Source: Candidatus Cloacimonadales bacterium (GTDB lineage: Bacteria; Cloacimonadota; Cloacimonadia; Cloacimonadales; JAFGVF01). Taken from it: 64,000 nt of DNA. The notes beneath the pieces are model-generated. The model was not told where the DNA came from. It worked only from the letters and a program-made list of their open reading frames with translations, and ran no database searches. The stretch is from positions 2,016,001-2,080,000 of the forward strand of contig CAXXJV010000001.1 of the NCBI GenBank assembly GCA_963663475.2, in the 5' to 3' direction. Position 1 is the first letter of the stretch; each line of letters opens with the position of its first letter. Below, one piece after another: positions 1-29,059 of the stretch. The position numbers and the translations under genes were made by a program.

Positions 1-3000
1 TAAGCCATTGAGTGTATTTCTATATACAGAAATGACTGCCCAATAATAATCACCATTTTCTAGTTGGGTAACATTATCTTCAATTGCACTTTCGCTTACA
101 AGTGTATCAATTACAGTCCATGTATCTGTTTCTGATATCTGGTCAGCTGTTAATGAATAAACATTATATCCTACTAAACCATAAGTGTCTTCTGCTTGAA
201 TCCAAGAAATCTCAGGAAGAGGATTAGTAAAGTTCACATCAACAGAGATTACTTGATGAGGTATTAACTTAAGATAATCAGGGGCAAATAATGTCTCAGC
301 ATATTCAGAAGTCGAATAATTAGCTCTCAGTGAGAAATCATAAACACCATTATCAGCATTAATTATAGTATAACTTAGAGAATTAGTCTCAGTAATTACT
401 TCCTGGCCATTTAGTAGGGTAAAGCTCTCTAATCCATATACATCTGAAGGATTATCCCAGCTTATAATTATATCGTTATCAATTGTTTCAATAGTTGAAT
501 TTTCTACAGGATAAGCTATAATTAATGTGTATTCAAGATTTTCAGATGCAATTTCGTTATCATCTATATAGATAGATTTAACCATGAATGAGTAGAGGCC
601 ATTTACCTGATCAGTAAATACATAACTTGTATCTTCAGTTGAATCAACAAAGACATTATTCTGATAAACTTCATATGATACAAAACCAAAAGTATCTTGA
701 GGTTGATCCCAACTTAAGGTTAAATCATTGCCTATAGATGCTATGTTAAGATTAGTAACAGGGTAGGCATTATAGATCATAACATTAGATATATCAACTG
801 TTTCATCAGCTTCAATTTCAGAATTGTAATTTGCTGTGATAGTGTAATCATATATTCCATTAGCAATAGCTTGATCAAGATATGTAGTAGTATTTGCTTC
901 TAGGACTACTTCAAATCTAGCGAGCTGACTAGTTTCTCTGGTAAGAGTAATAGATTCCAGACCGAATGTATCGGCAGGTAATTGCCAAGATATTTCTAGA
1001 TCACTAACAATCAATTCATAGCTAGTATCTGTTACTGGATAGGTCTTGATTAATTCATAAGCAAGTATCTCACTAGCTTGTGACTGACTTGAACTATAGA
1101 TTGTTTTTACAGAGAAATTATAGTCTCCATTGGCTAAGTCAAGACTGTAAGTATTTTCACTTGTTGATGCTAAAAGCTCACTATCATTATATATCTCGAA
1201 GGATATGAAATCATAATCGCCACCAGTGTAATCCCATATTAGACTGGTATTTTCCTCTGAAGATGAAATAGCTAGGTTTGTAGGACTTACTGGAATAAGT
1301 AAACTGATAGCTTGACTATTTACACTTTCCTCATTTCCGCCTTGATAAATAGATTTAACACTATATTGATAAAGGCCATTTTCAGGATTTATATCAATAT
1401 AATTACTCTCAGAACTTGCTAAATCTGTTATAAACTCATCATTTCTATAAATAGCATAGTTAAGTAAACCATAAGTATCATTAGGCGCTAACCAAGATAG
1501 AACAATGTCCTCAGCTTCAATTGAAGTTGTTAGGTCTTGAACAGGATAGGCTAAGATATAAGTTTGATTTACAGCCTCTGTTAGAGGATTTTCTACACTA
1601 TCATTGTAGTAGGTCATAACCTGATAAGAATATTCACCATTGGCAAGATTGACATCAAGGAAATTATTAGCTTGAGTTTGGCCAACAACTATATCATTTC
1701 TTAATATCTTGTAAGCAGAGATTAATCCCAAGTCTTGCGGATAATCCCAGTTCAATTCAATACCATTATCAGTGATTGAAGTGGTTAAATTATTAACTAA
1801 TTGAGGCTGAAGAATGTTAAAGGTAACTGGTTGAGATTGCTCAGAAGAAGCAAAATCATAGTTTGCCTTAACACTTAGCTCATAGATACCATTAGCTAAA
1901 TCACTTTCATTGTAGTAAGTATTACTAGTGGTTGTTACTTCTTGGCCATTCTTAAATACACTGTAATCAACTAACCTACCCCAAGCAGAATAGTCTTCCC
2001 AAGTAAGACTTATACTGTCATCATTAGATTGATAATCAACTATAAGAGGTATGTGAGCTTTCATGACATCTGCGTAAGCAGGATTACTAAGCTCAGAAAC
2101 TAGATTGTTATATACTGCTCTAATTGTATAAGTGTGTTGAGCATTAACTAAGTTTTCATCTGTATATTGATTTTGACTTACATCACTTAAATAAGCTATT
2201 TCTTGGCCATTTCTATTGATAATGAAAGCAGTTTCTCCATTACTAGGATTATCCCAAGTTAGGCTTACATCATTCTCATTAACTATAGTAGCAGTTAAAT
2301 TGCTAGGAACATCAGCTGATGCAATATTAGCAACAACACTTAGGGATGGGGAAGATATACCTTCGGCATAGATAGCTTTTACATAGTATTGATAAGTTCC
2401 ATTAGGGAGAGAATAATCCCAGAAGAAGTTATCAGTAATACTTGTTACAAGCTCATTATTCCTATAAATCATATATCCTGTTGCTAATTCAGATGGAATA
2501 TCCCATGTAAGCTGAACATCACTATCATTTTCAACAAATACTTGTAGATTTGTTGGTGCTAGAAGTTCAGGAGCAAGATAGATATTTACAGAAACAGTGT
2601 TTGATTCGATAGATATTCCAGCATCATAAACAGCTTTCACATAATAATCATAATCTCCATTAGCAAGGGCATAATCTGTCCAGGTAAGAGTCTGTGGATT
2701 ATCTATAAGAGTAGCTATTGCTCCATTTCTATATATAAGGTAACCTCTAAAAGTTCTTATTTGAGCACTAGTTGCAGGTAATTCCCAAGTCAAACTTACA
2801 TTATTATCTTCTACTTGAGCAATTAAAGAACTTGCAGGATAGGTGATTTCAATTTCAAAATCTAAAGTATTTGTAGGAATTGATTCACCTCCAGAATAAG
2901 CAGCTGTCACATAGTAATTATAAGAACCATTGGCTAGAAAAGAATCAACATAAGAAAGATCATTGCTTGATGCAATAAATTGGTCATTTCTATAGATATT

Positions 3001-6000
3001 ATATCCTATTAGACCCCTTGCTTCACTAACAGGTGCTTGCCAATTGAGACTTATCTCATCTCTATCAAGAGAGCCAACCAAAGTATGAGCAGGATAGAAA
3101 ACTTCAACAAAAGCTTCTACATCATTACTGGCTGGAGAAAGTCCACTAGTATAATTAGCTTTTACATAGTAGTTGTAGCTACCGTTGGCCAGATTTTCAT
3201 CTGTATAAGTTAAATCATTAACTTGAGCAATTTCTTCCTCATCACGATAAATAACATAATTTAGGAAACTTCTAGGATAAGTAATAATTTCATCCCAGCT
3301 AAGAATAACATTACTAGAATCTACACTTGCAAGTAAATTCTCTACTGGATAAAGAACTTCTACTAATAGATCAACACTATTGGAAGCTTGAGATTCACCA
3401 GCATCATAGAGGGCAGTTACATAGTAGCTATAGTTTCCATTAGCCAGGGCAAGATCTCTGTAAGTTAAATCTTGAGTCTCTGCAATTACTTCATCATTAC
3501 GATATATATTATATCCTAGAAGAGCTCTTGGAGAGTTAGCTGGCATATTCCAAGCTAAATCAACATAATCATCTGTTACTTGACCTGTGAGATTTGTCAC
3601 TGGGTAAGTTATTTCTACATTGAAATCTAAGACTTGACTAGCAGCAGAGGAAGCAGAAGCATAATCAGCAATAACATAATATTCATAACTACCGTTAGCT
3701 AATCCTGAATCAATGTAGCTTAAATCAGTTAGGTTAGCATATAGGTCGCCATTGCGATATAAAGAATAAGATAAGATAGATTGTCCTACATTTTCATTAA
3801 CATCCCAAGTTAAAGTGATTTCAGTATCATTTAACTGGCCTGTGAAATTAACAAGTGGATAAAGAACTTCAACAACTACATTTGCATATTGAGCTTGAGA
3901 AATACCTGTTGAGTAAATAGCTTCAAGCTTATAGTCATAAGTATCATTTATTAGATTCTCATCATAATATGATAAAGCACTAGCATCAAAGAAAATCTCT
4001 TCTTCATCACGATAGACTTTGTAGCCTAAGAATGATCTGCTAGAAGTAGGAGCAGCATCCCAAGTTAATAAAACATTATTACCTTCAACATTATATGTGA
4101 AATTTTCAGGTGAGTAAGGAACTTCAACTAAGGCTGATTGAGCTGGGCATAATTCTGAACTACCACTCTGATAGTTAACTCTTATGCTATATTCATAGTT
4201 GCCATTAGCAAGGGCTTGGTCTAAGAACTCATTTTCAATACTGGAAGCAATATCTTGACCATTCCTAAATATTGAAAAGTCAATAATAGAACTAGCAGAC
4301 ATTATGTTTTCATTCCAAGAGAGAGAAATATCATCTTCAAAAACACTTAGCTGAAGATCTTGTGCTGGATAAAGAACTTCTACAAGTGCTTCAGCATTAT
4401 TAGAAGCTTGTGAAATTCCTGTTGTATAATTAGCTTTTACATAGTAGTTGTAGCTACCGTTGGCCAGATTTTCATCTGTATAAGTTAAATCATTAACTTG
4501 AGCAATTTCTTCCTCATCACGATAAATAACATAATTTAGGAAACTTCTAGGATAGGTAATAATTTCATCCCAACTAAGAATAACATTACTAGAATCTACA
4601 CTTGCAAGTAAATTCTCTACTGGATAAAGAACTTCTACTAATAGATCAACACTATTGGAAGCTTGAGATTCACCAGCATCATAGAGGGCAGTTACATAGT
4701 AGCTATAGTTTCCATTAGCCAGGGCAAGATCTCTGTAAGTTAAATCTTGAGTCTCTGCAATTACTTCATCATTACGATATATATTATATCCTAGAAGAGC
4801 TCTTGGAGAGTTAGCTGGCATATTCCAAGCTAAATCAACATAATCATCTGTTACTTGACCTGTGAGATTTGTCACTGGGTAAGTTATTTCTACATTGAAA
4901 TCTAAGACTTGACTAGCAGCAGAGGAAGCAGAAGCATAATCAGCAATAACATAATATTCATAACTACCGTTAGCTAATCCTGAATCAATGTAGCTTAAAT
5001 CAGTTAGGTTAGCATATAGGTCGCCATTGCGATATAAAGAATAAGATAAGATAGATTGTCCTACATTTTCATTAACATCCCAAGTTAAAGTGATTTCAGT
5101 ATCATTTAACTGGCCTGTGAAGTTAACAGGTGGATAAAGAACTTCAACAATTACATTTGCATAAAGAGCTTGAGAAATACCTGTTGAATAAATAGCTTCA
5201 AGCTTATAGTCATAAGTAGCATTTATTAGATTCTCATCATAATATGATAAAGCACTAGCATCAAAGAAAATCTCTTCTTCATCACGATAGACTTTGTAGC
5301 CTAAGAATGATCTGCTAGAAGTTGGAGCAGCATCCCAAGTTAATAAAACATTATTACCTTCAACATTATATGTGAAATTTTCAGGTGAGTAAGGAACTTC
5401 AACTTGACCAGTTATGATTTGTGAAGCTACTGAAGAACCAGACTGATAATTGGCTATAATATAGTAATCATAAGAGCCATTCGCAAGGGCTTGGTCTAAG
5501 TAAGATAGACTATTTACTCGTGTAAGCTCTTGATTATTTCTGTAAATAGTAAAATCAAGTATGGAATTAGCAGCCATTGGATTAGGGCTCCATGAGACTA
5601 AAACATCATCTTCATTAATATCCAAAACAAGACTATTAGCAGGATAAAGTACTTCAATTTCAGCCTCTACTGCATTACTTGCTTGAGAATCACCAGAAGA
5701 ATATTCTGCTTTAACATAATAGCTATAAGTACCATTAACTAAGTCAGAATCACTATAAGTTAATTGAGTTTGAGAACTAATAAGCTGATTATTTTTAAAG
5801 ACTTTATAAGCTAAGAAACCTCTGTACATTTCATTAGGTTCATCCCAAGTAAGATTAACATTATTGTCCTGCAAACTTAGTGTAAGATTGTTTGGTTCAT
5901 ACAATACTTCCACTTGCACAGGTAAAGGACTTGATAATTCTGATAAACCATTTATATATACTGCCTGCACTTGATAGTCATATTGACCATTTGCTAGGTT

Positions 6001-9000
6001 GCTATCAATAAAGACTTCTTCAGAAATAGTCGCAATTAACTCACTGTCTTTTAATACATTATATTCAAGAACATTGTTAGCAAGACTATTTATATCCCAA
6101 GTTAAAGTTACAACATTACCTTCTACAGATCCAGTTAAATTATGGACTGGATAATGAACATCTATAACTGCCTCAACTTCTTCACTAAGGTCAGATTGAC
6201 CTGTCTCATAGATAGCTTTAACAGCTAAGTCATATCTTCCATTAGGATTATCAGTGAAGAGATAGCTAGTGTCAGAACTTGTTGCAAGAAGTTCATCTGC
6301 CATATAAATATTATATTCTAGTATGCTAGATCCAGCTAGTGGATTAGCTTGCCAGCTTAAGGTATAATTGCTGTTATCTACTTCTACAGCTAAGTTTGTT
6401 ATAGGATAGTGAAGATCTATTAAAAGGTCTTCTGAAACAAGGGGAGCTGATTGTCCATTAGTATAATTTGCTCTAATTGCATAAGTATAAGTGTCATTGA
6501 TTAAAGCATTATCATTATAAGTTAAATCGCTTGTTTCTGCTAAGAAAGAAGCATTTCTATATATGCTATAAGAACTAAGACCTAATTGGTCAATTGGTGA
6601 TTCCCAAGCTAACTCTACATTGTTATCTTGATTAGTCACTGTGATATTTACTGGTGAATAAGCAACTTCCACATAAGGATTAACTATATTAGAAGGTTGA
6701 GAATCTCCATTTGTATAATTCGCTATCACATAGATTGAATAAGTTCCATTAGCTAAGTCAGTAAGAGTGAAAGACTCTTGATTAATCTCTGCTTGTTCTA
6801 AGCTTTCGTTTACATATAGAGAATATGCTGAAAAAGCTCTACTAGCTATAGCTGGTCTAGTCCAAGTTAACTCTATGCTATTGTTTATTACATTTGCTTC
6901 TAAGCCAGTGACTGGATAAGTTACACTAACTTCAGCTGAAACAGCATTACTAGCTTCTGAATCACCTGAATCAGAATTGTTACTAGTAATAATATAATAG
7001 GAATAATCACCATTAGCAAGTCCCTCATCTGTGAAAGAAACTTGATTAGTTTGGCTTAAATAAGAACCATTGCGATAGATTTTGAATATGGGGTTACCAC
7101 TATAAGGATATTCCCAGCTTAGATTGATATCGTCATCACTAACAATGGCTTGAAGATTATTAATCAAGTAAGGATACTCAATCTGGATTTCATCACTATT
7201 TACAGGCTGAGAATCTCCATTAATGTAAGAAGCGATTATACTATAGGTGTAGCTTCCATCTGCTAAATCACTGTCAGTATAGGATGTTTCATTAATAGTA
7301 TCTATAAGCAGACCATTTCTCAATACTTGGAAATTCTCAATTGTGTCTCCACTATTATAATCCTTATACCAATTTAAATTAATATTGTTTTTGTTTTCCA
7401 CTTGGCTGGTAAGTTCAGCAATTGGATAGTTTATTATTAAGCTAATATCCTGAATCTCAGAAGATTGAGAAGTTCCACTTGAATAATGTACAAGAACATA
7501 ATATTCATAACTTCCATTAACTAAATCTGAGTCAGTATAACTTAGATCTGTGGTATTGGCAATAGATATGTCATTACGAAATAGCTCATATTCAATTAAA
7601 GATCTCTCGTTTTCTGCCAGAGTAGGTCTTTCCCAGTCTAAGATAATATCATTTCCACTTATCTCATAGTTAAAAGTTGTTACAGGATAAAGGATTTCTA
7701 ACTCAAAGCTTATGGGTGAAGTTTGTTCAGATAATCCACTAGGGTATTCAGTTGCTACAGAATACTCATAATAACCATTATTTAAATTTTCATCTGTAAA
7801 AGATGTTTCACTTGTGTTGGCATACTCAGAACCATTACGATAGATTCGATAGAGAAGATTAGTCCCAGAATTTGAATCAGCTTGCCAATCGAGACTTACA
7901 CTGTTACCTTCTAAAGTATAAGCTAAATCGTAAGGTGGATAAAGAATTTCTATATCCACTTCAACCTCCACTATTTCTGATAAACCAGAATTATAGAGGG
8001 CTTGTAAACCAAATGTATAGCTAGAATTTTCTAGATTAAATACAGTATAGTTAGTAATTCCAGTGTTATATATATTACTTATAATCTGACCATTCTTGTA
8101 TACCTTATAGCCAATTAAATCACGAGAAGGTCCTCCCTGAATAGCTGGAAGATCCCAAGTAAGATTAACATTATTAGTTTGAATATCTGCTGATAAATTT
8201 CGTGGAGGATAAGGATAATCTATTACCACTATTTCTGTTTCAGAAAAGTCAGATTCAATTCCGTCATAGACTGCTGTTACCTGATATTCATAAGAACCAT
8301 TTGCTAAATTATAATCAAAGAAAGTAGGATTGCTTATATTATAAACTGAGGCAACAATCTGATTATCTCGATAGACTTTATAAAACTCTATCAAATCAGC
8401 ACCTAATCCATAAGACCATGATAATTGAACACTTACTTCATTGACGATAGAACTTACCAAGTTTATAGGTGCTTCCACATTCATAATATTAACACTTGCA
8501 GGAAGAGAAAATCCTGATGTTAAACTATAATAGACTGTTCTAATCTTATAGACATAAGACCCATTTTCTAAGTTTTCATCATTATAAAAATTGGTGCTTT
8601 CATTAGTAAGCACTGTTAATAATTCATTATTCCGATATATTTCATAACCAGTTGCATAATCAGAACTCGGTACAGTCCATACTAAATGAACATTATCATT
8701 ATCATAAACACTAGCGATCAGATTGCTTGGAGGGGCTATTGACCCTATAACTATTCTTAGAGAAGAAGAAGGAGAGGATTCAGTTCCTGAATACATAGCG
8801 GTTACATATAAAAGATGCTCACCTTCGCTTAGTGATAAATTCAATTGTGGATTAACTGAAGATGAGTGAAAGTTTCCATTAAGATAGATATTATAACTAT
8901 CAGGTGTTATATCACCTACTAGGGGAGATGGCGACCAAGTAACTTCCACTGTGTTTTCGTTAACTTGATTATAGCTTAGATTAGTAGGTGGGTAGAATAT

Positions 9001-10425
9001 ACTTAATTCTACAGTGGCAATATTTGAAAAGCTTGATACTCCCGTATTATAAATTGCCTTTACTGAATAATAATGGACTCCATTAGATACATTACCATCT
9101 GTATAGCTTATAACATTAGGATTGTAGGATCTAGTTAACTCAGAGTAATCCTTATAAATTATATAACCCTGTAAGTCTCTTTGATAACCTGCAGGAAAAT
9201 CCCAGTTCAAAGTAACAGTGTTTGATTGAGTAATCTGAGCAGTAAGATTTTGAGGTGGATTTAATGGTGTCTGACCATCAGGAAGATCAATAGCATCGAG
9301 ATATATTGTATCATCTCCTCCAACAACAGACCCATCTTTAATGTATGACCACTTAAACTGATAAATACCAGGAGTGAGAGCATAGGAAGCATAAGTCCAT
9401 TCACCTTCTCCAAACCACTCATCTTGTTCTACACCATTAATATAGAAAACAGCTCTATCATATTGACCAATTGTTAAATACTCACAAGAAGGTTTAATGA
9501 AGAAAGATATATTGTCGTTTTCTGCAACTTCTAAATCAATTAACATAGAAGATGTCTGATTATGATTAATAAATAATGGTCTTGCTGAATGGGTTCCCTC
9601 ATAAGCTTCATTGCTAGCAATTGTCCAGCCTGCATTTCCTTGAAAATACCAGTTATTGTTAGTAAATCCAGATTCAAAAGATTCATCATATTCATTTAAA
9701 TTGCTGGGTATGATATTAATTAACATTTTCTGGTTATCAACACTAATCAAATGACCATCAATTATTAAATCTGTCAAATTAGTTGTATAATGTTCATAGT
9801 TTCCAATACTGGTAACATATGTGTAACGGTTATCAGCATTAAGTCCATCTATTATTATTTGATAATATCTGTCAACTGAAGGTGCATATCCTTGATATAA
9901 GACAGGCCTACCTAAAGCTAATTGTTGATTGATCATCTGTCTCCAATCAAAAATAGAAGTAGTAGCTAAATCATGCAATTCCATTGAATCAGAATAAGAG
10001 AAATTGTTCTGTAAAGCATCTTGGATATCTTCTAAATTTGAAGTTGTATAATCAATTTCCCAGTCTGATTCTATTGCATAACCTGCTATTGCAATCAATG
10101 CTTGAGTCTCAGGTCTAATTAAAATATTAGACATTCTTTCCCAGTCAAATGAGACTTGCAAATTCTGATTAATATTACCTAAATCATCATCATAATAAAC
10201 TGCTGTGCCATTTCCAATTGATGGATAGTTCCAGAACTTCATGATTTTTGCAGTAGCTAAAGCTCCACTTCCAGCATCAACTCTAGTAGATTGAATAACT
10301 GGACATTGGCCATTCCATGGACCATCAGTATTCCATTGTGATTGAATCATTGGTTCTACTTGCCCAAACAAAGAAGTAAATGCCATTACACAAAAAAGTA
10401 ATGGTAAAACTAAATTTTTTTTCAT
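1..10425 (-). CDS. Giant secreted protein (>3475 aa, 3' end outside window): signal peptide, peptidase C10-like domain lacking catalytic residues, beta-sandwich domain, ~36 FN3-like repeats
   Basis: Manual translation from ATG at 10425 (RBS GGAGG upstream): MKKNLVLPLLFCVMAFTSLFGQVEPMIQSQWNTDGPWNGQCP...AGSGALATAKIMKFWNYPSIGNG. The same frame is still coding at position 1 (...LENGDYYWAVISVYRNTLNGL). An LxNGxYxY motif recurs every ~255 nt. The frame was spot-checked, not read codon by codon. Confidence 0.9.
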   Translation of the reverse strand, partial: MKKNLVLPLLFCVMAFTSLFGQVEPMIQSQWNTDGPWNGQCPVIQSTRVDAGSGALATAKIMKFWNYPSIGNGTAVYYDDDLGNINQNLQVSFDWERMSNILIRPETQALIAIAGYAIESDWEIDYTTSNLEDIQDALQNNFSYSDSMELHDLATTSIFDWRQMINQQLALGRPVLYQGYAPSVDRYYQIIIDGLNADNRYTYVTSIGNYEHYTTNLTDLIIDGHLISVDNQKMLINIIPSNLNEYDESFESGFTNNNWYFQGNAGWTIASNEAYEGTHSARPLFINHNQTSSMLIDLEVAENDNISFFIKPSCEYLTIGQYDRAVFYINGVEQDEWFGEGEWTYASYALTPGIYQFKWSYIKDGSVVGGDDTIYLDAIDLPDGQTPLNPPQNLTAQITQSNTVTLNWDFPAGYQRDLQGYIIYKDYSELTRSYNPNVISYTDGNVSNGVHYYSVKAIYNTGVSSFSNIATVELSIFYPPTNLSYNQVNENTVEVTWSPSPLVGDITPDSYNIYLNGNFHSSSVNPQLNLSLSEGEHLLYVTAMYSGTESSPSSSLRIVIGSIAPPSNLIASVYDNDNVHLVWTVPSSDYATGYEIYRNNELLTVLTNESTNFYNDENLENGSYVYKIRTVYYSLTSGFSLPASVNIMNVEAPINLVSSIVNEVSVQLSWSYGLGADLIEFYKVYRDNQIVASVYNISNPTFFDYNLANGSYEYQVTAVYDGIESDFSETEIVVIDYPYPPRNLSADIQTNNVNLTWDLPAIQGGPSRDLIGYKVYKNGQIISNIYNTGITNYTVFNLENSSYTFGLQALYNSGLSEIVEVEVDIEILYPPYDLAYTLEGNSVSLDWQADSNSGTNLLYRIYRNGSEYANTSETSFTDENLNNGYYEYSVATEYPSGLSEQTSPISFELEILYPVTTFNYEISGNDIILDWERPTLAENERSLIEYELFRNDISIANTTDLSYTDSDLVNGSYEYYVLVHYSSGTSQSSEIQDISLIINYPIAELTSQVENKNNINLNWYKDYNSGDTIENFQVLRNGLLIDTINETSYTDSDLADGSYTYSIIASYINGDSQPVNSDEIQIEYPYLINNLQAIVSDDDINLSWEYPYSGNPIFKIYRNGSYLSQTNQVSFTDEGLANGDYSYYIITSNNSDSGDSEASNAVSAEVSVTYPVTGLEANVINNSIELTWTRPAIASRAFSAYSLYVNESLEQAEINQESFTLTDLANGTYSIYVIANYTNGDSQPSNIVNPYVEVAYSPVNITVTNQDNNVELAWESPIDQLGLSSYSIYRNASFLAETSDLTYNDNALINDTYTYAIRANYTNGQSAPLVSEDLLIDLHYPITNLAVEVDNSNYTLSWQANPLAGSSILEYNIYMADELLATSSDTSYLFTDNPNGRYDLAVKAIYETGQSDLSEEVEAVIDVHYPVHNLTGSVEGNVVTLTWDINSLANNVLEYNVLKDSELIATISEEVFIDSNLANGQYDYQVQAVYINGLSELSSPLPVQVEVLYEPNNLTLSLQDNNVNLTWDEPNEMYRGFLAYKVFKNNQLISSQTQLTYSDSDLVNGTYSYYVKAEYSSGDSQASNAVEAEIEVLYPANSLVLDINEDDVLVSWSPNPMAANSILDFTIYRNNQELTRVNSLSYLDQALANGSYDYYIIANYQSGSSVASQIITGQVEVPYSPENFTYNVEGNNVLLTWDAAPTSSRSFLGYKVYRDEEEIFFDASALSYYDENLINATYDYKLEAIYSTGISQALYANVIVEVLYPPVNFTGQLNDTEITLTWDVNENVGQSILSYSLYRNGDLYANLTDLSYIDSGLANGSYEYYVIADYASASSAASQVLDFNVEITYPVTNLTGQVTDDYVDLAWNMPANSPRALLGYNIYRNDEVIAETQDLTYRDLALANGNYSYYVTALYDAGESQASNSVDLLVEVLYPVENLLASVDSSNVILSWDEIITYPRSFLNYVIYRDEEEIAQVNDLTYTDENLANGSYNYYVKANYTTGISQASNNAEALVEVLYPAQDLQLSVFEDDISLSWNENIMSASSIIDFSIFRNGQDIASSIENEFLDQALANGNYEYSIRVNYQSGSSELCPAQSALVEVPYSPENFTYNVEGNNVLLTWDAAPTSSRSFLGYKVYRDEEEIFFDASALSYYDENLINDTYDYKLEAIYSTGISQAQYANVVVEVLYPLVNFTGQLNDTEITLTWDVNENVGQSILSYSLYRNGDLYANLTDLSYIDSGLANGSYEYYVIADYASASSAASQVLDFNVEITYPVTNLTGQVTDDYVDLAWNMPANSPRALLGYNIYRNDEVIAETQDLTYRDLALANGNYSYYVTALYDAGESQASNSVDLLVEVLYPVENLLASVDSSNVILSWDEIITYPRSFLNYVIYRDEEEIAQVNDLTYTDENLANGSYNYYVKANYTSGLSPASNDVEAFVEVFYPAHTLVGSLDRDEISLNWQAPVSEARGLIGYNIYRNDQFIASSNDLSYVDSFLANGSYNYYVTAAYSGGESIPTNTLDFEIEITYPASSLIAQVEDNNVSLTWELPATSAQIRTFRGYLIYRNGAIATLIDNPQTLTWTDYALANGDYDYYVKAVYDAGISIESNTVSVNIYLAPELLAPTNLQVFVENDSDVQLTWDIPSELATGYMIYRNNELVTSITDNFFWDYSLPNGTYQYYVKAIYAEGISSPSLSVVANIASADVPSNLTATIVNENDVSLTWDNPSNGETAFIINRNGQEIAYLSDVSQNQYTDENLVNAQHTYTIRAVYNNLVSELSNPAYADVMKAHIPLIVDYQSNDDSISLTWEDYSAWGRLVDYSVFKNGQEVTTTSNTYYNESDLANGIYELSVKANYDFASSEQSQPVTFNILQPQLVNNLTTSITDNGIELNWDYPQDLGLISAYKILRNDIVVGQTQANNFLDVNLANGEYSYQVMTYYNDSVENPLTEAVNQTYILAYPVQDLTTSIEAEDIVLSWLAPNDTYGLLNYAIYRNDEFITDLASSESNYIDINPENGLYQYSVKSIYQGGNEESVNSQAISLLIPVSPTNLAISSSEENTSLIWDYTGGDYDFISFEIYNDSELLASTSENTYSLDLANGDYNFSVKTIYSSSQSQASEILAYELIKTYPVTDTSYELIVSDLEISWQLPADTFGLESITLTRETSQLARFEVVLEANTTTYLDQAIANGIYDYTITANYNSEIEADETVDISNVMIYNAYPVTNLNIASIGNDLTLSWDQPQDTFGFVSYEVYQNNVFVDSTEDTSYVFTDQVNGLYSFMVKSIYIDDNEIASENLEYTLIIAYPVENSTIETIDNDIIISWDNPSDVYGLESFTLLNGQEVITETNSLSYTIINADNGVYDFSLRANYSTSEYAETLFAPDYLKLIPHQVISVDVNFTNPLPEISWIQAEDTYGLVGYNVYSLTADQISETDTWTVIDTLVSESAIEDNVTQLENGDYYWAVISVYRNTLNGL
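3149..5404. repeat. Near-identical intragenic direct repeat (3149-4129 vs 4424-5404, offset 1275 nt)
   Basis: Direct comparison shows long identical stretches with about a dozen substitutions. Confidence 0.95.
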
Positions 10426-10751
10426 AAATCCTCCGTAATTTATCATAAATAAGTCTATAATTACAAATATATTAATACTTATGCAAATTTAATTCCTTTA
10501 AATAATATATTTATAAATTATTTACATTAATAGTTAATATTTGTTAAGAAAGTGCTATTTATCTTAATTAGCTACTAACAAAATATCATCAAGTGATAGT
10601 TTAACCCAAAATGTTTAACCAACTATTTCAAATAATGTAATCTTTATCTACATTATTTTCTTTATAGTCTATTGGGGGTCTATTAGGGATTCATTATTTC
10701 TTTATTAGTTGTTCATTGGGTAGATGCATAATCGTCATGCACTAGTAGAAT

Positions 10752-10773
10752 AAAAAAGCCCCTAAAAAGGGGC
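10752..10773 (-). terminator. Intrinsic terminator
   Basis: GCCCCT-TTTT-AGGGGC followed by T6 on the minus strand, just after the stop at 10794. Confidence 0.8.
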
Positions 10774-10793
10774 CTTAGAGGGAAGCTTATTTT

Positions 10794-13433
10794 TTATTTG
10801 AGTAGTATCATTTTCTTGCTTGAAGAATATTTACCACTTTTCATTTTGTAGAAATATATTCCAGATGTAACTGTTTTATTCTTATCATCTCTACCATTCC
10901 AGATTACTGAATGATTTCCACTTTCTTGAACTTGATCAATGAGTGTTCTTACTTTTTGTCCCTTAATGTTGTAGATAATAATACTAACATTTTGACTTGC
11001 TTTAAGAGAATACTTTATCCTTGTTTCAGGATTAAATGGATTTGGATAGTTACCAGCAAGTTGGGTAATGGCAGATAAATCACTTACATCATTACTTACT
11101 ATATTTATCAGCAGACTATTTGATGAATCAGTATAACTACCATCTTCGTATCTTCCAACAAGCCAGAGACTTGACTCTCCTGCTGCAAGAGTTAAAGAAG
11201 TGAGTGGGTATTGGGTTTGACTAAGCGGTAAATCATGATAATATACCATGTTTGGCTCAGATTCATTTTCCCATGCTATACTATATCCTTCAAAGCTTTG
11301 TGTTGGTGAATCTTGAACATCAGAAGAACATGGATTCCACATTAATATATCTCCTACTAATCTTAAATTACTTGGGTATAAGAGATGACTTTCGGTCTGA
11401 TAAGCAATTTCTGTGTTTGCCTGAAGATTAAGAAGTTTTTCTTGGTTTAGGTTTTCTGTATATGAATTAATGCTTGCATAAAAGTCAGAATATTCTGTAA
11501 CACGAGGGTTAACTGATAGGGGAGAGATATCTCCAGTATATTCGTTCATCGTAGAAGTTTCCATATCCCATGGTGAATCAAGAATTTTCATAAGGACCTT
11601 CACCGCAATTTCTTGACCAGCTATATCTTTCCCATAAGAACCTAATACTTCACAAGCATTAGAATAGAGGTTGTAGGATCCATCAATGAAAGTAACTTGG
11701 TGGTTATCAAAAGTCTCACCAATTTGAGCATCGTTTTTCAAATAAAGGTATTCTTGATCGAAAGTAACAGTTTCCCAGCCACTAGGGCCATATTTTTGAT
11801 AGCCTACAAGCATTAGTTCATTGTTGTCATTCTCATAAACTAATTGCTTAACTTCTTCAGTAAAGAATTCATCCTTAAGAATAGGGGTAACATCATTCCC
11901 ATTTACCTCAATATTCTCATAAGTCTTAAAGACTTTTTCTCTAGTTTCAGAATTAAAATTAAGTGAAATTTCTTCATTCTGGTTATCATCATTCAAGGAA
12001 ATGATAGTTTGCTCATCAAAAGGACCATAATAACAATGACCAAAATAATATTGACCATCTAATTCATAATAACCTATGATAGTGAAAGTTATTGGATTCT
12101 CAAAGATTATTTCATAAGACTGTTCAATACTATCAAGATGATAGTCAGTCATTTCCATACTATTTAAGTCTCTAATTCTAAGACTGTAGGAAACTTGTTC
12201 AGTAATCTCACTAGTAATATTAACTGAAAGTGTGTATTCATCATTTTCACTAGCAATAGGAAGATAAACAACTGTTCCTAAACTAGGATTATCATTTGAA
12301 TCAAATATGGTCTCAGCAATTTCAGAAACATCACTAGTTCCCCAGTAATTATTCTTAGCTAAAATATTGATAGAAGAATTAATATTGTTCAATATTACAC
12401 TGTTATTGGCTCCATTAACATCAATATTATCTTGAATTGTATTTAATCCATAAGCATAGGGATGATTCATCTCAGGAGCTCCAATAACTGGTTGAGCTCC
12501 TACGGTAAGATAGATTCCACCATAATTACCTGAAATTAAGTTTCCAGCTATGTAAGGTGTTGCTCCACCTCCATAACACATAATGCCAGCTCCTGAATTC
12601 ATATCACCTTCAATATGATTATTGATGATTTGGTTATCATATAAGGTTCCTGAGCAATTATAGAAATAAACACCAGTATAATTTTCAGCAATAATATTAT
12701 CAAAGATTTGTGCATTAATACCATTTGAAGAGAACATATCTACACATGTAATACCTTGATAATGATTATTATGAATATTGTTTTCAGTGATAGTTGGAGT
12801 AACAGGCATACCAGTAGTTTGAATACTCACTTGGATAGCACCTCTAAATTGAGGACCAGTTCCATTGCCTGTAATCTCATTATTTATAATCATAACATTG
12901 CTTGATTCTGCTATCAAAATACCACTCTTGACACTGTTTTCTATCAAATTACCCTCGATATGTACTGCTGGTGGGTTTGTATTGCCTATAGCAAAAACAT
13001 GTATAGCTTCATCATTATATGTGAAATGTGAATTAGTAATATTGACTGGAGAATTGATAGAATTTATTCCATTCTCTGCATTTTGAAAAAAACAATAATC
13101 GAAAAGATTAGGGTCTTGACCCTCATACTCAAGTCTGATACCCTGGTGGCTAACACTAGTGTCATCACTACTAGCTTTAAAAGTTATCATTGAATCTTGA
13201 TTACCTAGAGCAATAATTCTGCCCTGAGCGGTAATTTGATAATCTCCTGAAAAGAGGACTTCAACTCCTTCTTCAATTTCTAAACTGGAATCAAGTGGAA
13301 TAGTAATATCACCAGTAACATTGTATGGCGAATTTGCAAGTGACCAGACGCCACTTTGATTTCCACTAACATCAAGTGCCTGCGAACATAAAGCAAGCAT
13401 TAATATAAATAAAATACCCACAAATTTCTTCAT
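10794..13433 (-). CDS. Secreted parallel beta-helix repeat protein with C-terminal T9SS-A-like/FlgD-Ig sorting domain
   Basis: Signal peptide MKKFVGIL (start 13433 preferred over 13469 because of RBS GGGAG), I.NN.I repeats, NYWG motif, C-terminal NYPNPFNPET...KKMILLK. Confidence 0.85.
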   Translation of the reverse strand: MKKFVGILFILMLALCSQALDVSGNQSGVWSLANSPYNVTGDITIPLDSSLEIEEGVEVLFSGDYQITAQGRIIALGNQDSMITFKASSDDTSVSHQGIRLEYEGQDPNLFDYCFFQNAENGINSINSPVNITNSHFTYNDEAIHVFAIGNTNPPAVHIEGNLIENSVKSGILIAESSNVMIINNEITGNGTGPQFRGAIQVSIQTTGMPVTPTITENNIHNNHYQGITCVDMFSSNGINAQIFDNIIAENYTGVYFYNCSGTLYDNQIINNHIEGDMNSGAGIMCYGGGATPYIAGNLISGNYGGIYLTVGAQPVIGAPEMNHPYAYGLNTIQDNIDVNGANNSVILNNINSSINILAKNNYWGTSDVSEIAETIFDSNDNPSLGTVVYLPIASENDEYTLSVNITSEITEQVSYSLRIRDLNSMEMTDYHLDSIEQSYEIIFENPITFTIIGYYELDGQYYFGHCYYGPFDEQTIISLNDDNQNEEISLNFNSETREKVFKTYENIEVNGNDVTPILKDEFFTEEVKQLVYENDNNELMLVGYQKYGPSGWETVTFDQEYLYLKNDAQIGETFDNHQVTFIDGSYNLYSNACEVLGSYGKDIAGQEIAVKVLMKILDSPWDMETSTMNEYTGDISPLSVNPRVTEYSDFYASINSYTENLNQEKLLNLQANTEIAYQTESHLLYPSNLRLVGDILMWNPCSSDVQDSPTQSFEGYSIAWENESEPNMVYYHDLPLSQTQYPLTSLTLAAGESSLWLVGRYEDGSYTDSSNSLLINIVSNDVSDLSAITQLAGNYPNPFNPETRIKYSLKASQNVSIIIYNIKGQKVRTLIDQVQESGNHSVIWNGRDDKNKTVTSGIYFYKMKSGKYSSSKKMILLK

Positions 13434-13540
13434 TTTAAATCTCCCATTAATAGTCTTATAGTATTTCATAACAATAATAAAATCTAGATAAAAACTGTAA
13501 ATTAATTTTTTTAGTATTTTCGATAAATCAAAATATCAGC

Positions 13541-13568: not shown

Positions 13569-13596
13569 ATATTTAAGATTGGATATCGGAGGAAGC

Positions 13597-15513
13597 TTGG
13601 ACTATCAGAGATTATATAATGAATTAAATGATTATCTAATAAAACATGATAAAGATACTTATCTTAAAAGATATAATGAATTAATTAAATCTGTTCCTGA
13701 TAACAGTCAAGAATATGTGGAAATGCTCTTAATAAAGCTTTCTTATTCAATTATTTATGAGGCAGACTATCACGCAATCGAAGCCTTCATTAATAAAGTT
13801 GAAACCCAAGTAAAAAGCTATGGCTCGGATATCCAAAAGATAAAATTTTCCATTAATAAGGGTGTTGTTTATGGAAGATTAGAACAATTTGATAAAGCAC
13901 TTGCTGTATATAATCAAGTATTAACTCTCTGTAATGATAGTAAGTTTAATTCATATAAGGTTTCCACTTTAATAAATATTGGAGTTGTCTATAATAAGCG
14001 ATACCAATATATTAAATCATTGAGATTCTTTCTGACTGCCTACTCAATAAATGTTAACTCTGAATCTCCTGTTAAACATACATCCATTCTAGCTAATTTA
14101 GGAGTTATTTATCTCAATATTCAAGAATACGAAAAGGCTGTTTATTACTTCGAATTATGTTTAAAAACCTTAGCTGATTCAAGAAAATATACCCTTCCTG
14201 CCTTATATAATAACTTAATTCTAGCTTATAGTAAAATAGGTGATTTTGCCAAAGCTCAAGCAATAATTACTAAAGCTGAGCAATCCATAAATACCTACAA
14301 TCAAGTCAATTTACTAGCCTATAAAAGGTCTTTAGCAGAGTATTATTTTGACTCTGGAGATTTAGCATCATCAGCAGAATGCTATCTTTATCTAATAAGC
14401 AATTCAGAACCTAAGTTATCTAATGCTATAGCAGAGTATAAAATAGCCTTGGCTAAGACATACTTGCTACAGGATAAGCTAGACCAATGCAAAAACTTGC
14501 TAGATGAAATTACCACTATGGGTGACTTTAGTGAGATTCTTAAAGAACAAATTGATTTTTTACGTCTCCAAGCTGAATTTTATCAGAAACTTGGAGACTA
14601 TCAAAAAGCATATGAATTCTCTCAAGAAATAATAAAACTAAATGATGATAATTACTTAAATTTGCAGGCAGAAATTATGGATGGTTTAACAGAACCCATC
14701 GTCTCAGATGTTGAAGATATTTCTTCTGTCGCTTATAGGGAAAAAATTAATGATTTAGAAGCTATGAATACAGAACTTATCTCCAAAGAAAAGCTCTTAG
14801 TTGAATCCCTAAATGAGCTTAAAAAAGAATCTAATCTCAGAGAAAAAATAATCTCTATCATTACCCATGATATTAGATCTCCCATAGGTAATATTATCCA
14901 ACTTTTTGAAATGTTAGATGAACTTGATGCACTGGAAGAAGAAGAAACTCTTAAGGAAATTATTCAAGCTATGAAGCAAACATATGCCTTAACAGACGAA
15001 CTTGTACACTGGGCTAAAGATATTATTTCTCAGAAACAAGCCAGATTGGTAAATCTTGAAATTGAAAAAGTAATTGATAATTGCCAACAAGTCCTAAAGC
15101 ATCAACTGCAGAAGAAACATATTAGCTTAAATAAAGAAATTGCAACTAAAGACTTAATTTATGGACATCAAGCTACTATAGAAACTTGTTTTAGAAATAT
15201 CATTTCTAATGCTATTAAGTATTCCAATGAATTCTCAGATATTGATATTATTGCCGAAACTAAAGATGAAAAGATTTCTTTTATAATAAAAGATTATGGC
15301 AAAGGGATGTCACAAGAAGAAGTTGCTAAGATATTTGATTATAACAAAGTATCTACCCTAGGTACTAATATGGAAGATGGGATTGGGATAGGACTATTAT
15401 TAGTTAAGGAACTTGTTGATAAAAATAATGGAACTATTGAGTGTAAATCACAATTAGGCCAAGGTACAGTATTTACTTTAACCTTCCCAAAAGTAATAAA
15501 TAAAAACACCTAG
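13597..15513 (+). CDS. TPR-containing sensor histidine kinase
   Basis: TPR helices (NIGVVY, NLGVIY), H-box ITHDIRSP, N-box NIISNAIKYS, G boxes DYGKGM and GIGIGL. TTG at 13597 follows GGAGG (ORF track start 13579). Confidence 0.9.
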   Translation: MDYQRLYNELNDYLIKHDKDTYLKRYNELIKSVPDNSQEYVEMLLIKLSYSIIYEADYHAIEAFINKVETQVKSYGSDIQKIKFSINKGVVYGRLEQFDKALAVYNQVLTLCNDSKFNSYKVSTLINIGVVYNKRYQYIKSLRFFLTAYSINVNSESPVKHTSILANLGVIYLNIQEYEKAVYYFELCLKTLADSRKYTLPALYNNLILAYSKIGDFAKAQAIITKAEQSINTYNQVNLLAYKRSLAEYYFDSGDLASSAECYLYLISNSEPKLSNAIAEYKIALAKTYLLQDKLDQCKNLLDEITTMGDFSEILKEQIDFLRLQAEFYQKLGDYQKAYEFSQEIIKLNDDNYLNLQAEIMDGLTEPIVSDVEDISSVAYREKINDLEAMNTELISKEKLLVESLNELKKESNLREKIISIITHDIRSPIGNIIQLFEMLDELDALEEEETLKEIIQAMKQTYALTDELVHWAKDIISQKQARLVNLEIEKVIDNCQQVLKHQLQKKHISLNKEIATKDLIYGHQATIETCFRNIISNAIKYSNEFSDIDIIAETKDEKISFIIKDYGKGMSQEEVAKIFDYNKVSTLGTNMEDGIGIGLLLVKELVDKNNGTIECKSQLGQGTVFTLTFPKVINKNT

Positions 15514-17263: not shown

Positions 17264-19054
17264 ATGGAAATGCGATGGTCTTTAAATGAACTATATGAAA
17301 GCTTTGATTCAAAAGAATATAAAGATGATCTTGATAAATTAGATTTATTAATCTCTAAAATAAATAATCACGCTAAATATTTAACCGATAATATGGAAAA
17401 ATTTGATCAAGATGATAAAGTTAAAGTTTTAGAAGATAAATTACAAAATGATTTAGAGGTTGATGATGTCCTTGAGAGACTTCACTCTTTTGCAGGACTT
17501 ACTAATTCAACTGATGTAGAAAACGCAGAATCTATAAAGTATTTGCAAGTACTTGATGATAAATTTGTTAAGATGACTGATGCAAATGTTAAATTTAATA
17601 AATGGATTTGCAGCATCTCTGATTTAGATCAGCTTATCCAAAAATCAGATTTCTTGAAAGAACATTCTTATCATTTGCATGAGATAGCAAAGAAGAAAGA
17701 TTATCTCTTGTCAGATGAACTAGAATTAATGTATGCAAAATTGCAACAATCTGGTTCTTCTGCTTGGGTGAGACTGCAATCAAATATTATATCAACTCTA
17801 ATGGTGGATCTTGAAGAAGATGGTAAAATAAGACAAGAACCTCTTCCTGTTATCCGTAATATGGCATATGATAAAAATGCTGACTTAAGAAAAAAAGCTT
17901 ATGAAGCTGAACTAGAATCCTATAAGAAAGTTGATCAGGTTATAGCAGCTTCTTTGAATGCTATTAAAGGTGAAGTAATTACTATGTGCCAACAAAGAGG
18001 CTATAAATCACCTCTAGAAATGACTTTATTAAACAGTAGAATGGAAGAATCAACTTTAAATGCTATGCTTGAAGCCATTAGAGAGTCTTTACCAGAATTT
18101 AGAAAATACCTGAAAAGAAAAGCTGAATTATTAGGTCATAAAAATGGATTACCATTCTATGATTTGTTTGCTCCCATGGGCCAAGCAGATATGACTTACT
18201 CTTATGAAGAAGCTAAAGATTTTATTGTAAAAAATTTCGCTAAGTTTAGTCAGAAGTTATCTGATTTTGCTAACCATGCTTTCAAAAACAACTGGATTGA
18301 CGCTGAACCTAGAAAGGGTAAACGTGGGGGAGCCTTCTGCTCTAGTATCCATTCTCTAGGACAATCAAGAATTCTATCTAACTTCACAGGTTCTTTTTCT
18401 GATGTTTCTACTTTGGCTCATGAACTAGGTCATGGATATCACAGCCATGTCTTAAACTCTCAAACCTCTTTAAACTCTGGTTACCCAATGCCTTTAGCTG
18501 AAACTGCTTCTATCTTTTGTGAAACAATTATCAATAACTCAGTCTTAGAAAATGCTAGTCCTGAACAAACATATACTTTGCTTGAAGGTAGAATTTCTGA
18601 CTCCACTCAAACCATAGTTGATATTTATAGTAGATTCTTATTTGAATCAGCACTTTTTGAAAAGAGAAAAGACTTTGATTTAACAGTAGAAGAACTCAAA
18701 AATACTATGCTACAAGCACAAAAAGAAGCTTATGGCGATGGATTAGATAATAATTATATGCACCCTTATATGTGGGCTTGCAAACCTCACTATTATTATG
18801 TCGAAGCTAATTTCTACAATTTCCCGTATGCTTTTGGCCAGCTATTTGCTTTAGGTTTGTATGCTGAGTATCAAAAACGCGGTCAATCTTTCTTGGAAGA
18901 TTATGATAAGCTTCTAGAAGCAACTGGTAAGAATGATATTTCAGACGTCACTAAATTAATGGGAATTGATGTTAATTCAGTTGAGTTTTGGAGATCTTCA
19001 CTACAAGTGATTATTGATGATATTCACAAATTTCTTGAGGTTAGTGAAAAATAA
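17264..19054 (+). CDS. pepF: M3B oligoendopeptidase F
   Basis: GKRGGAFC, HELGH zinc motif, AETASIF, FYNFPYAFG. Confidence 0.93.
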   Translation: MEMRWSLNELYESFDSKEYKDDLDKLDLLISKINNHAKYLTDNMEKFDQDDKVKVLEDKLQNDLEVDDVLERLHSFAGLTNSTDVENAESIKYLQVLDDKFVKMTDANVKFNKWICSISDLDQLIQKSDFLKEHSYHLHEIAKKKDYLLSDELELMYAKLQQSGSSAWVRLQSNIISTLMVDLEEDGKIRQEPLPVIRNMAYDKNADLRKKAYEAELESYKKVDQVIAASLNAIKGEVITMCQQRGYKSPLEMTLLNSRMEESTLNAMLEAIRESLPEFRKYLKRKAELLGHKNGLPFYDLFAPMGQADMTYSYEEAKDFIVKNFAKFSQKLSDFANHAFKNNWIDAEPRKGKRGGAFCSSIHSLGQSRILSNFTGSFSDVSTLAHELGHGYHSHVLNSQTSLNSGYPMPLAETASIFCETIINNSVLENASPEQTYTLLEGRISDSTQTIVDIYSRFLFESALFEKRKDFDLTVEELKNTMLQAQKEAYGDGLDNNYMHPYMWACKPHYYYVEANFYNFPYAFGQLFALGLYAEYQKRGQSFLEDYDKLLEATGKNDISDVTKLMGIDVNSVEFWRSSLQVIIDDIHKFLEVSEK

Positions 19055-20187: not shown

Positions 20188-20437
20188 AATAACAGAACAA
20201 CTTAAAAAATGAAATTTTGAGAGGGTTTTCAATCGCTGGATTCCTTTTACTATCCTTGTATCTTCATTTACGGTATTTTGATATAACTTGGCTGATATCT
20301 AGAAATAGTTAAAGAAAAATTAAAAAAACATCAAAATCTCAAGATTAAAAAGTAGACAATTAAAAAAAGGTTGACTAAAAAATGAATGTTATTCAGTTTT
20401 GCTATTACGTAAAACAAAAAATAATAATGGAGATTAT

Positions 20438-28700: not shown

Positions 28701-29059
28701 TTTTAAAGAATTACCTCTATAATGGTAATCTGAAGATTAAACTTGAAAATGGTGAAACACGTAATGAACTTAACGATTATGAAATTTGGCTTGCTGGTTT
28801 GAATAATATTATTACAGCTAACTTAGCGCGAAAATATACTTTACAGCTTAATAATGATTTTATCTATACTTGGGATAAGAGTCAGACTGATTTTATATTT
28901 TTACCTGAAAAAAGACCAGGCTTTTCTCTCAAATGGAATATTTCAGCTAAATATAATTATAATCAATATATAACTCTGAATCTTTCATATTTTGGTAATA
29001 AGTATCCTCAAAATCCGATGGAAAATAATTTAAATATAGAAATAAAGGCAGAATTTTAA
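25751..29059 (+). CDS. Large hypothetical outer-membrane protein, probable beta-barrel
   Basis: Signal-like N-terminus, alternating aromatic beta-strand pattern, C-terminal ...EIKAEF, two DY.IDY.EG repeats. Confidence 0.7.
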   Translation: MKKCLTLIFLLFISIYQGEDLKYWISEYFSPQDTQIQLKHNQLITYSETVLSDSLVFTRNLDYSIDYQEGKIWPISDKIKKERQLKIDYKIIPQDFLEALYLYKIEVRDDSTYVVEKRERKATFLENNKLLINGSKTFALSFSESKDFDVNQSLYLKLSGEIASNLFVEAQLSDSNSPISVEGGSQELSSLDKVFISLFNDNFELSFGDLSHEIKNTNYINYLAQFEGLKIGLFQDKNAIYTGSFDQQNKVWAALAVSKGKNSSFRFTCLEGKQGPYYIYVNDNDQNISIIANSEKLFIDGIKAERGIDYFIDYSEGSVTFEKLVTSETEIYITFEYSDEKYSNNLYVSSSHYKITDFLNISFHAIHREDDKDNPLEDIHTPEDIQAFKVAGDSIIFVNGVYEVELGQGNYIAETNAQGETIYSYVGEEGQGNYNIYFSYMGQGQGSYSQNLPNQFEYVGSGNGDYEAVRKLNPPQRLSNYDLLIRFGLESFYLELESLLTEYDQNTFSAKDDSDNQGSISKIALNLKQDFSSWSTNNVASYEYKSNNLNAISDLENPLELSYGGAATSYDSLKSKILELTSDFQLTDYFRTRLNYKSQKIKSFYDSNLLTTDFSIYEHYYSPQVDYTYTNKSIDYSLENIDSFNYTNKTLQLSKKISFLQARFNFLKERSQENFTPNFKTAFDYQKYTYSLNTINLANINIASSYWQDHRKNLNNEEWQDISLTQTYNNNLLLSFKKSNTNVEYTLRKIDGKDDNVEDNTFNKITINSNHSLFNNGLDLNYNYKINNLEFYPKVRELQYMGEGGGAYDSLGFYQEDGDWDWLYVNSGQPQLSTELNFSFNGYLRLSSFTQTPFWRNLTADLRTIITEDSKTSEKLKLYLLNPQVLMNNNTSLYGRQNILTRYGYTSDGKKFNYSLALEWDKILDNRYQDDNRTRIKIIDNEFMLRRMSFGNLGTQLTYREEDDSRYQQITKEYSSTLKYQNGFLKNYLYNGNLKIKLENGETRNELNDYEIWLAGLNNIITANLARKYTLQLNNDFIYTWDKSQTDFIFLPEKRPGFSLKWNISAKYNYNQYITLNLSYFGNKYPQNPMENNLNIEIKAEF

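Follow-up and report, generated by a model that had tools for sequence, protein, structure and literature searches.

A probable C10 pseudoprotease domain at the head of a giant FN3-repeat protein in Cloacimonadota

The giant gene and its features

We examined a stretch of 64,000 nucleotides from Candidatus Cloacimonadales bacterium (GTDB lineage Cloacimonadota; JAFGVF01), covering positions 2,016,001 to 2,080,000 of the forward strand of contig CAXXJV010000001.1 (GenBank assembly GCA_963663475.2) and called the window below. The subject of this report is a giant gene on the minus strand, whose product begins with a domain of the streptopain (MEROPS C10) family that has very probably ceased to be a protease. 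A preliminary description of this DNA, made from its letters, had presented the domain as a catalytically dead streptopain-like head on a giant FN3 stalk. The gene is one open frame, at 1..10446 (minus strand), that runs off the window. The window covers the first 3482 residues of a 3595-residue protein, counted from the first ATG, and the stop-to-stop frame in the genome has 3609 codons. Residues are numbered from this first ATG, at 10446, and the likely start is Met8. From its N-terminus, the protein consists of a signal peptide, the dead C10 domain, a beta-sandwich of MAM/CBM-like type, 36 FN3-like repeats, a short linker and a type A sorting domain of T9SS, the type IX secretion system. 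The features located in the window are:

10755..10776, minus strand: terminator-like hairpin between an upstream 891-residue gene and the giant gene
10430..10434, minus strand: GGAGG, resembling a Shine-Dalgarno site and read from the sequence 4 nt ahead of the ATG at 10425
10363..10425, minus strand: signal peptide, Met8 to Gly28 (...SLFG, then Q29), with a putative cleavage site placed from the sequence and not by a predictor
9691..10353, minus strand: C10 (streptopain)-like domain, residues 32-252, predicted to be catalytically dead (PF01640, AlphaFold2 and Foldseek)
10267..10269, minus strand: codon AGT of Ser60, at the catalytic-Cys position, one base from TGT
10246..10248, minus strand: codon of Lys67, at the position of the Gln kept by intact C10 domains (Cys+7)
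9862..9864, minus strand: codon of Tyr195, at the catalytic-His position
9268..9684, minus strand: second head domain, residues 255-393, a predicted MAM/CBM (jelly-roll) beta-sandwich with no sequence-family match
1..9264, minus strand: FN3-like repeat array, residues 395 onwards, running off the window edge, with the last repeat, the linker and the sorting domain beyond it

Translation likely starts at the second ATG, at 10425 (Met8), which we favour over the first ATG at 10446 because the GGAGG site lies 4 nt ahead of it and the orthologues start with MKK or MNK. The hydrophobic N-terminus is conserved among orthologues. The residue after the predicted cleavage, Gln29 (10360-10362), is also present in the genus orthologues and recalls the 'Q-rule' of Bacteroidetes. 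For Candidatus Cloacimonas, a low Q-value (24%) has been reported, with an annotation problem suspected (PMC5837995). Between the upstream gene and the giant gene, two overlapping terminator-like sites were counted against 0.2 expected. The hairpin divides the two genes and suggests that the giant gene forms its own transcription unit.

A streptopain-like domain without its active site

The C10 assignment of the first domain held at the level of both profile and structure. PF01640 (Peptidase_C10) matched residues 38-207 with 94.7 bits (E 1.1e-26) against a cut-off of 26, covering profile positions 1-179 of 194. In a HMMER comparison with PDB sequences, eight matches (E 1.2e-9 to 3e-8) were to streptopain or interpain A, and the remaining 4 of the 12 matches listed are at chance level (E about 0.3). 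The AlphaFold2 model, built from a 76-sequence alignment, reaches a predicted local distance difference test score (pLDDT) of more than 90 throughout the domain. SpeB (streptopain) and interpain A account for all 13 of its best Foldseek matches, which have E 5.7e-16 to 1.7e-12, template modelling scores (TM) to target of 0.56-0.81 (0.77-0.81 for SpeB) and root-mean-square deviations of 2.2-2.4 A. The model has a papain-like fold that superposes on SpeB and interpain A, and the first domain is genuinely homologous to streptopain and interpain, whose fold it shares. The fold-core residues W38, P43, N45, C48-P49, G59, M69, P75, W102, W168 and D200 are retained. A scan with NCBIfam profiles placed the head in no NCBIfam family.

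The catalytic residues of SpeB are named as C47 and H195 (PMC9455582). In the HMMER alignments, Ser60 lies opposite Cys47 and Tyr195 lies opposite His195. We compared the sites in 134 domains with Cys and His and 34 domains of the dead clade. The 134 intact homologues show the motifs W.Q..PYN..CP, GC, GH..DG and NWGWGG, and the window protein reads WNTDGPWNGQCP, AGSGAL, DRYYQIIIDG and YVTSIG at these motifs. The change of Gln to Thr in the first of them, the change of Cys to Ser and the loss of His and NWGW, all noted in the preliminary description, are real in the translation of 1..10446 (minus strand). Every one of the 34 propeptide-less domains of the dead clade carries Ser or Thr at position 60. 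The position seven residues on, occupied by Gln in 132 of the 134 intact domains, holds Lys in 32 of the 34 and Met in the other two. At the catalytic-His position, all 134 intact domains have His, and the dead clade most often has Val (13 of 34), Tyr (9) or Ile (9), with Leu also occurring. Further changes in the dead clade are Thr63 to Leu and the loss of Gly186 and of the NWGWGG loop. In the alignment of the Cloacimonadota loci, no His is conserved anywhere in the C10 domain of the dead clade.

The propeptide that precedes C10 proteases is also missing, as had been proposed. The upstream stop is only 14 codons away from the first ATG, and the C10 domain begins about 10 residues past the signal peptide; in intact relatives it starts at residue 120-190. 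The 347-nt gap upstream holds no open reading frame of 80 residues or more. A search of the 99%-complete genome with PF13734 (Inhibitor_I69) gave no match, and a control genome did give one. Giant relatives that keep Ser and His carry a PF13734 match, and the loss of the propeptide is confined to lineages that are also without His. With no His-dependent activity left to hold in check, the propeptide would be dispensable, and its loss agrees with a latency device that has become unnecessary.

Since the Cys-His dyad, the Gln that intact domains keep, NWGW and the propeptide are all lost, the head very probably cannot work as a C10 cysteine protease. The reading as a pseudoprotease with a C10 fold is well supported by the sequence comparison, and the losses recur in every close orthologue examined.

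Conservation of the loss among relatives

An exhaustive HMMER search returned 7440 homologues at E <=1e-3, with only 12 reaching E 1e-30. The 150 best hits yielded 155 domains, a sample biased toward relatives of a dead query, in which 131 domains have Cys and His and 24 are without one or both. Seventeen of these 24 make up the query's clade, and the other 7 are scattered elsewhere (P0075, P0076, P0093, P0108, P0120, P0129 and P0145). As judged from these domains, dead C10 domains arise independently elsewhere in the family.

A scan of species-representative genomes found 23 loci. Nineteen are from Cloacimonadota (35-77% identity), and the other four, at 26-28% identity, are from Bacteroidales, Bacteroidota or 'bacterium TMED198'. 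In all 19 Cloacimonadota loci, the domain lies directly behind a signal peptide or the contig ends there (L021), and the key positions hold Ser/Thr, Lys and Tyr/Val/Ile/Leu. The four loci from outside the phylum have Cys and Gln and a leader of propeptide length (about 150-180 residues); GH is visible in three of them, and the fourth (L024) has an open frame that stops short.

We also sampled 201 genomes of the phylum. A C10 match at E <=1e-5 was present in 132 of them, and 23, including the window's own genome, had a match at E <=1e-30. This second search overlaps the first, and 29 fetched loci were examined. The domain is dead and propeptide-less in 22 loci, with Ser/Thr, Lys/Met and Tyr/Val/Ile/Leu at the key positions. 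Three loci have Ser with His kept and 136-150 residues before the domain, and four have the canonical Cys, Gln and His with 138-189 residues before it. A further genome, G091, has Ser without His in an open frame of 3119 residues, and about 170 residues precede the domain as a leader. Ser and Thr at position 60 interchange even within the genus. A survey of homologues had been suggested as a check on the loss of the dyad, and the loss is conserved: Cys and His are absent from the 19 Cloacimonadota loci of the first search and from the 22 of the second. The window's 99%-complete genome has no second C10 gene in a genome-wide C10 search.

Stepwise origin within the phylum

In a FastTree tree of 179 domains, the 32 dead domains of the Lys type form one group (support 100), which is nested in a 37-tip group of Cys-less domains (support 100). 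A quick IQ-TREE run was made on 70 rows picked to cover all classes (33 Cys-less and 37 with Cys and His). Here a branch with a Shimodaira-Hasegawa-like approximate likelihood ratio (SH-aLRT) of 99 sets the Cys-less rows apart from those with Cys and His. The propeptide-less forms (Thr/Met/Ile type and Lys type) group together at SH-aLRT 95, and the Lys type at 99. The IQ-TREE tree does not settle in which order the propeptide-bearing Ser/His and Ser/no-His forms branch at the base of the Cys-less clade, so His may have been lost once or twice.

Four kinds of form live in the phylum: Cys/His with a propeptide, Ser/His with a propeptide, Ser without His with a propeptide, and propeptide-less dead heads. 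If the root lies among the intact enzymes, as the direction of the series presumes, C10 proteases tethered to stalks within the phylum would have lost first Cys, then His and then the propeptide. Giant intermediates with Ser, His and Inhibitor_I69 are found in P0017 (3335 residues) and P0156 (3285 residues), both with FN3 arrays and a T9SS tail. The G091 frame, with Ser, no His and a propeptide, is likewise a giant intermediate of this build. Ser at the nucleophile with His and the I69 propeptide kept is seen in these two proteins and at loci L049-L051 (genomes G193, G044 and G033). Relatives of the P0017/P0156 type might be Ser-His enzymes or the first dead stage.

We scanned ten relatives from the Cys-less group for their architecture. 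An FN3 array with FlgD_ig/Por_Secre_tail is present in nine, which represent all classes. The tenth, P0097 (715 residues), has FN3 and no tail domain, and its C10 domain is identical to that of G091. Intact C10 domains also occur on long proteins of the phylum, in open frames of up to 2437 residues, so tethering on long proteins is not confined to dead forms.

The second head domain and the stalk

The second domain of the head was folded alone with 20 orthologues, and a beta-sandwich was predicted with a mean pLDDT of 80.6 and a predicted TM-score of 0.81. The top Foldseek ranks are meprin MAM (TM 0.55-0.60) and CBM61, and leads in the ESM Atlas are CBM_4_9 (0.90), Cleaved_Adhesin (0.86-0.88) and MAM (0.86). 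Against Pfam, 0 of 20 members match the MAM, Cleaved_Adhesin or CBM families, and a profile of the domain found nothing significant among PDB sequences. The model points to a binding-type fold that often rides behind proteases; a shared fold alone does not show function. This family is present in 19 of the 156 stored proteins, all of them Cys-less and none Cys/His. The clade members without it are two short fragments (P0004 and P0037) and two proteins that continue differently (P0011 and P0013).

The giant FN3 stalk of the preliminary description was borne out. A self-built profile found 36 FN3-like repeats of about 85 residues at residues 395-3483 (domain E 5e-11 to 8e-33), and PF00041 scored 213 bits on the stalk, which makes up about 86% of the protein. 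Tandem Repeats Finder detected no array at the DNA level in the stalk, and the repeats are diverged save for one duplication. A 300-nt direct repeat at 3086-3385 and 4361-4660 has 93% identity and a spacing of 1275 nt (425 residues, or five FN3 repeats), which marks a recent duplication of a five-repeat block inside the stalk. Repeat scores recur at the same 425-residue spacing. The open frames of genus orthologues range from 3160 to 3609 residues, and the orthologue frames not obviously cut by contig ends from 2834 to 4311.

We then compared the identity of the parts to five same-genus orthologues: 66-77% for the C10 domain, 74-83% for the second domain and 43-74% for the first ten FN3 repeats. 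At a deeper level, the values in the same order are 35-39%, 43-48% and 27-45%. By these figures, constraint on the head is no weaker than on the stalk, and the head is no relic in decay.

Secretion and display

Just beyond the window edge (locus L002), TIGR04183 (40.6 bits, cut-off 23), PF18962 (31.7 bits) and PF13860 (41.9 bits) match the T9SS type A sorting domain. The genome encodes the sortase and signal peptidase PorU (NF033707, 571.6 bits against a cut-off of 420). The PorU model also hits at least 50 other open frames through its sorting-domain end only, which indicates that the genome has a large T9SS secretome. Another T9SS cargo is an open frame of 5716 residues (region G000:C1:98673-99092). 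An FN3 domain is about 3.5 nm long, and 36 repeats in an extended stalk would reach roughly 125 nm.

Cloacimonadota are among the phyla that may have T9SS (PMC11285876). According to the same source, PorU cuts off the sorting domain, and a subset of cargoes receives anionic lipopolysaccharide and stays on the outer membrane. In the giant protein, removal of the sorting domain by PorU would leave a new C-terminus fixed to the outer membrane. With the C-terminus as the anchor, the dead C10 domain and the second domain would stand at the distal tip.

Function of the head

We consider a binding head, displayed on a long T9SS-secreted stalk, to be the best reading, with a probability of roughly 55%. 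The two-domain head would act as a ligand-binding adhesin or capture device, and it probably binds through the former substrate cleft and the jelly-roll domain. This reading is drawn from the N-terminal position of the head opposite the sorting domain, its conservation over that of the stalk and the adjoining MAM/CBM-like beta-sandwich. The preliminary description had offered a binding head, a decoy or an inhibitor trap on a long stalk; the stalk is established, and the binding head is kept as the interpretation that suits these three observations best. A more specific version, which we put forward tentatively as one possibility, is an adhesin working as a substrate trap, in which the cleft of the dead protease and the jelly-roll, some 125 nm out, would capture proteinaceous particles or partner cells for amino-acid-fermenting syntrophic bacteria.

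Several observations weigh against a displayed binding head. Dead C10 domains are not rare among the hits, given the seven outside the clade. The PorZ-like gene scores 143 bits, under its cut-off of 260. Two RNA runs from one study, labelled as metatranscriptomes, gave contigs of 150-540 nt, at least 99% identical, over parts of the head and the upstream gene; the bins at 10314-10715 and some others are without contig cover, and such contigs cannot show level, strand or absence. They are a weak hint that the giant gene is expressed, and DNA carry-over is possible. Many T9SS cargoes are released after cleavage (PMC11285876), and anchoring is assumed here. Finally, Ser or Thr is always present at position 60, to the exclusion of Ala and Gly, and this could point to a role in chemistry. 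Helix N-capping, for which Ser and Thr are well suited, can also explain the invariance.

The last point bears on whether the head is still an enzyme, with Ser/Thr60 as the nucleophile and a new base such as Lys67, acting as a hydrolase or transferase. The constancy of Ser/Thr60 (34 of 34 dead-clade domains) and of Lys67 (32 of 34) would suit this, and the basal relatives that keep Ser with His and the propeptide may retain some activity. We nevertheless regard an enzyme as very unlikely. The domain has no conserved His, Ser and Thr swap freely within the genus, which is unusual for a nucleophile, and Gly186 and the NWGWGG loop beside the site are lost. Moreover, positions 60 and 67 are seven residues, or two turns, apart on one helix in the secondary structure of the model, which helix geometry would put at about 10 A, and the propeptide was lost only in lineages without His, as expected if there was nothing to restrain. 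Pseudoenzymes often regulate active paralogues, and C10 catalytic domains bind I69 propeptides, as their Pfam names imply; on such grounds the head could act as a decoy, trap inhibitors or regulate an active C10 paralogue, by sequestering protease inhibitors or by binding a domain like the propeptide. This proposal found no support in the genome-wide search, in which the 99%-complete genome has neither another C10 match nor a match to the Inhibitor_I69 propeptide domain, and a 36-repeat stalk would be superfluous for a soluble decoy. We judge it the least probable of the explanations considered here.

The head may instead have no ligand, and the protein may be a structural surface fibre (a coat or spacer) in which the C10 and jelly-roll domains persist only to cap the FN3 array during folding or secretion. 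Our analysis picked out no ligand or binding site for the head, the stalk dominates the protein and varies in length among orthologues, and its five-repeat block was duplicated recently, all of which would agree with a fibre. A mere cap is, however, not expected to be conserved more tightly than the stalk, and the head is the best-conserved part within the genus. Positions specific to the dead clade (Lys67, Asp86-Asp87, Ser106 and Thr114) are invariant, and the second-domain family is limited to this clade. On balance, a fibre without a ligand seems unlikely. In a further scenario, the heads of neighbouring cells would bind each other in homophilic cell-to-cell contact, like the MAM domains of receptor phosphatases. 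The likeness is one of fold only, with 14-15% identity to the two chains compared, and CBMs and protease-appended domains score equally for the second domain, which leaves homophilic contact improbable.

Neighbouring genes

The upstream neighbour of the giant gene (10794-13469, minus strand) encodes an 891-residue T9SS cargo, in which a right-handed beta-helix (PF13229, 51.4 bits; NosD, 46.2 bits) is combined with a sorting domain of type A. The gene is syntenic in 4 of the 23 loci (L003, L004, L005 and L007), which are near relatives with 60-81% identity, and a fifth hit to its product covers the sorting domain only. We considered it as a functional (operon) partner and dropped it, given synteny in so few loci and the terminator-like hairpin between the genes. 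RNA contigs of many other genes meet at 11021-11055, in the conserved sorting-domain motif NYPNPFNPET.

Further along the window are genes for a TPR-containing histidine kinase (13579-15513), an M3 oligopeptidase F-like peptidase (17264-19054) and a FadL/TodX-type outer-membrane channel (20399-21757), and no link was seen between the giant gene and these three. At 25751-29059 (plus strand), a 1102-residue protein has a signal-peptide-like start and no Pfam match at E <=0.001.

Relation to known systems and significance

The head shares sequence family (MEROPS C10, PF01640), fold (TM to target 0.76-0.81) and core motifs with streptopain (SpeB) and interpain A. It differs from them in the changes of Cys to Ser, His to Tyr and Gln(+7) to Lys, and in having no NWGW and no propeptide. 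The architecture is also different: the C10 domain stands at the N-terminus of a roughly 3590-residue FN3/T9SS protein, whereas the intact homologues are mostly 500-1700 residues long, with some of up to about 2400. The same change of Cys to Ser was made in the laboratory in the C47S mutant of SpeB (PDB 1DKI, titled 'active site (C47S) mutant', and 2JTC). That mutant retains His195 and the propeptide, whereas the change in the window clade is natural, fixed in the clade and accompanied by further losses.

Plasmodium SERA5 has Ser at the nucleophile position. It differs from the window protein in belonging to a C1-like family of a eukaryotic parasite, in being soluble in the vacuole and in having no stalk and no T9SS. 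SERA5 is described as a papain-like pseudoprotease, with the clan CA fold in a non-catalytic role (PMC5500368). The T9SS M6-like inactivated metalloprotease family (NF052323) is, by its name, a precedent for an inactivated protease on T9SS type A cargo. It belongs to another protease clan, and only its sorting domain matched the window protein (26.9 bits against a cut-off of 600). SprB of Flavobacterium is a giant repetitive T9SS cargo thought to present a surface binding function, and it relies on the gliding machinery and on a sorting domain of type B. The window protein, in contrast, has a sorting domain of type A and a protease relic as its head.

The second domain shares its fold and its place right after a protease-type domain with meprin MAM, gingipain Kgp K1 and the C-terminal domain of VesC, but at the sequence level none of the 20 members searched matched the MAM, Cleaved_Adhesin or CBM families of Pfam. 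In a survey of papain-like peptidases, C10 is said to work without the third triad residue, and inactive members are listed in other papain-like families (PMC10318531). Our search of the full-text literature, made without most subscription journals, supplements and the MEROPS lists of non-peptidase homologues, found neither an inactive C10 clade nor this architecture described.

Within the phylum, these proteins offer a natural series for studying the birth of a pseudoenzyme, in which the order of losses would be readable from living lineages and the fold of the end form is constrained more strongly than the remainder of the protein. They also bear on annotation. Counts of secreted peptidases have been used to infer a protein-degrading lifestyle of Cloacimonadota (PMC8542988). 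Such counts may be inflated by a non-enzyme, since the family member P0003 is named 'C10 family peptidase, partial' at NCBI; P0009 is a 'hypothetical protein' in another source. If the head is an adhesin, the giant protein would be a candidate for a surface structure through which members of this uncultured phylum, a common one in digesters and sediments, attach or make contact with partners.

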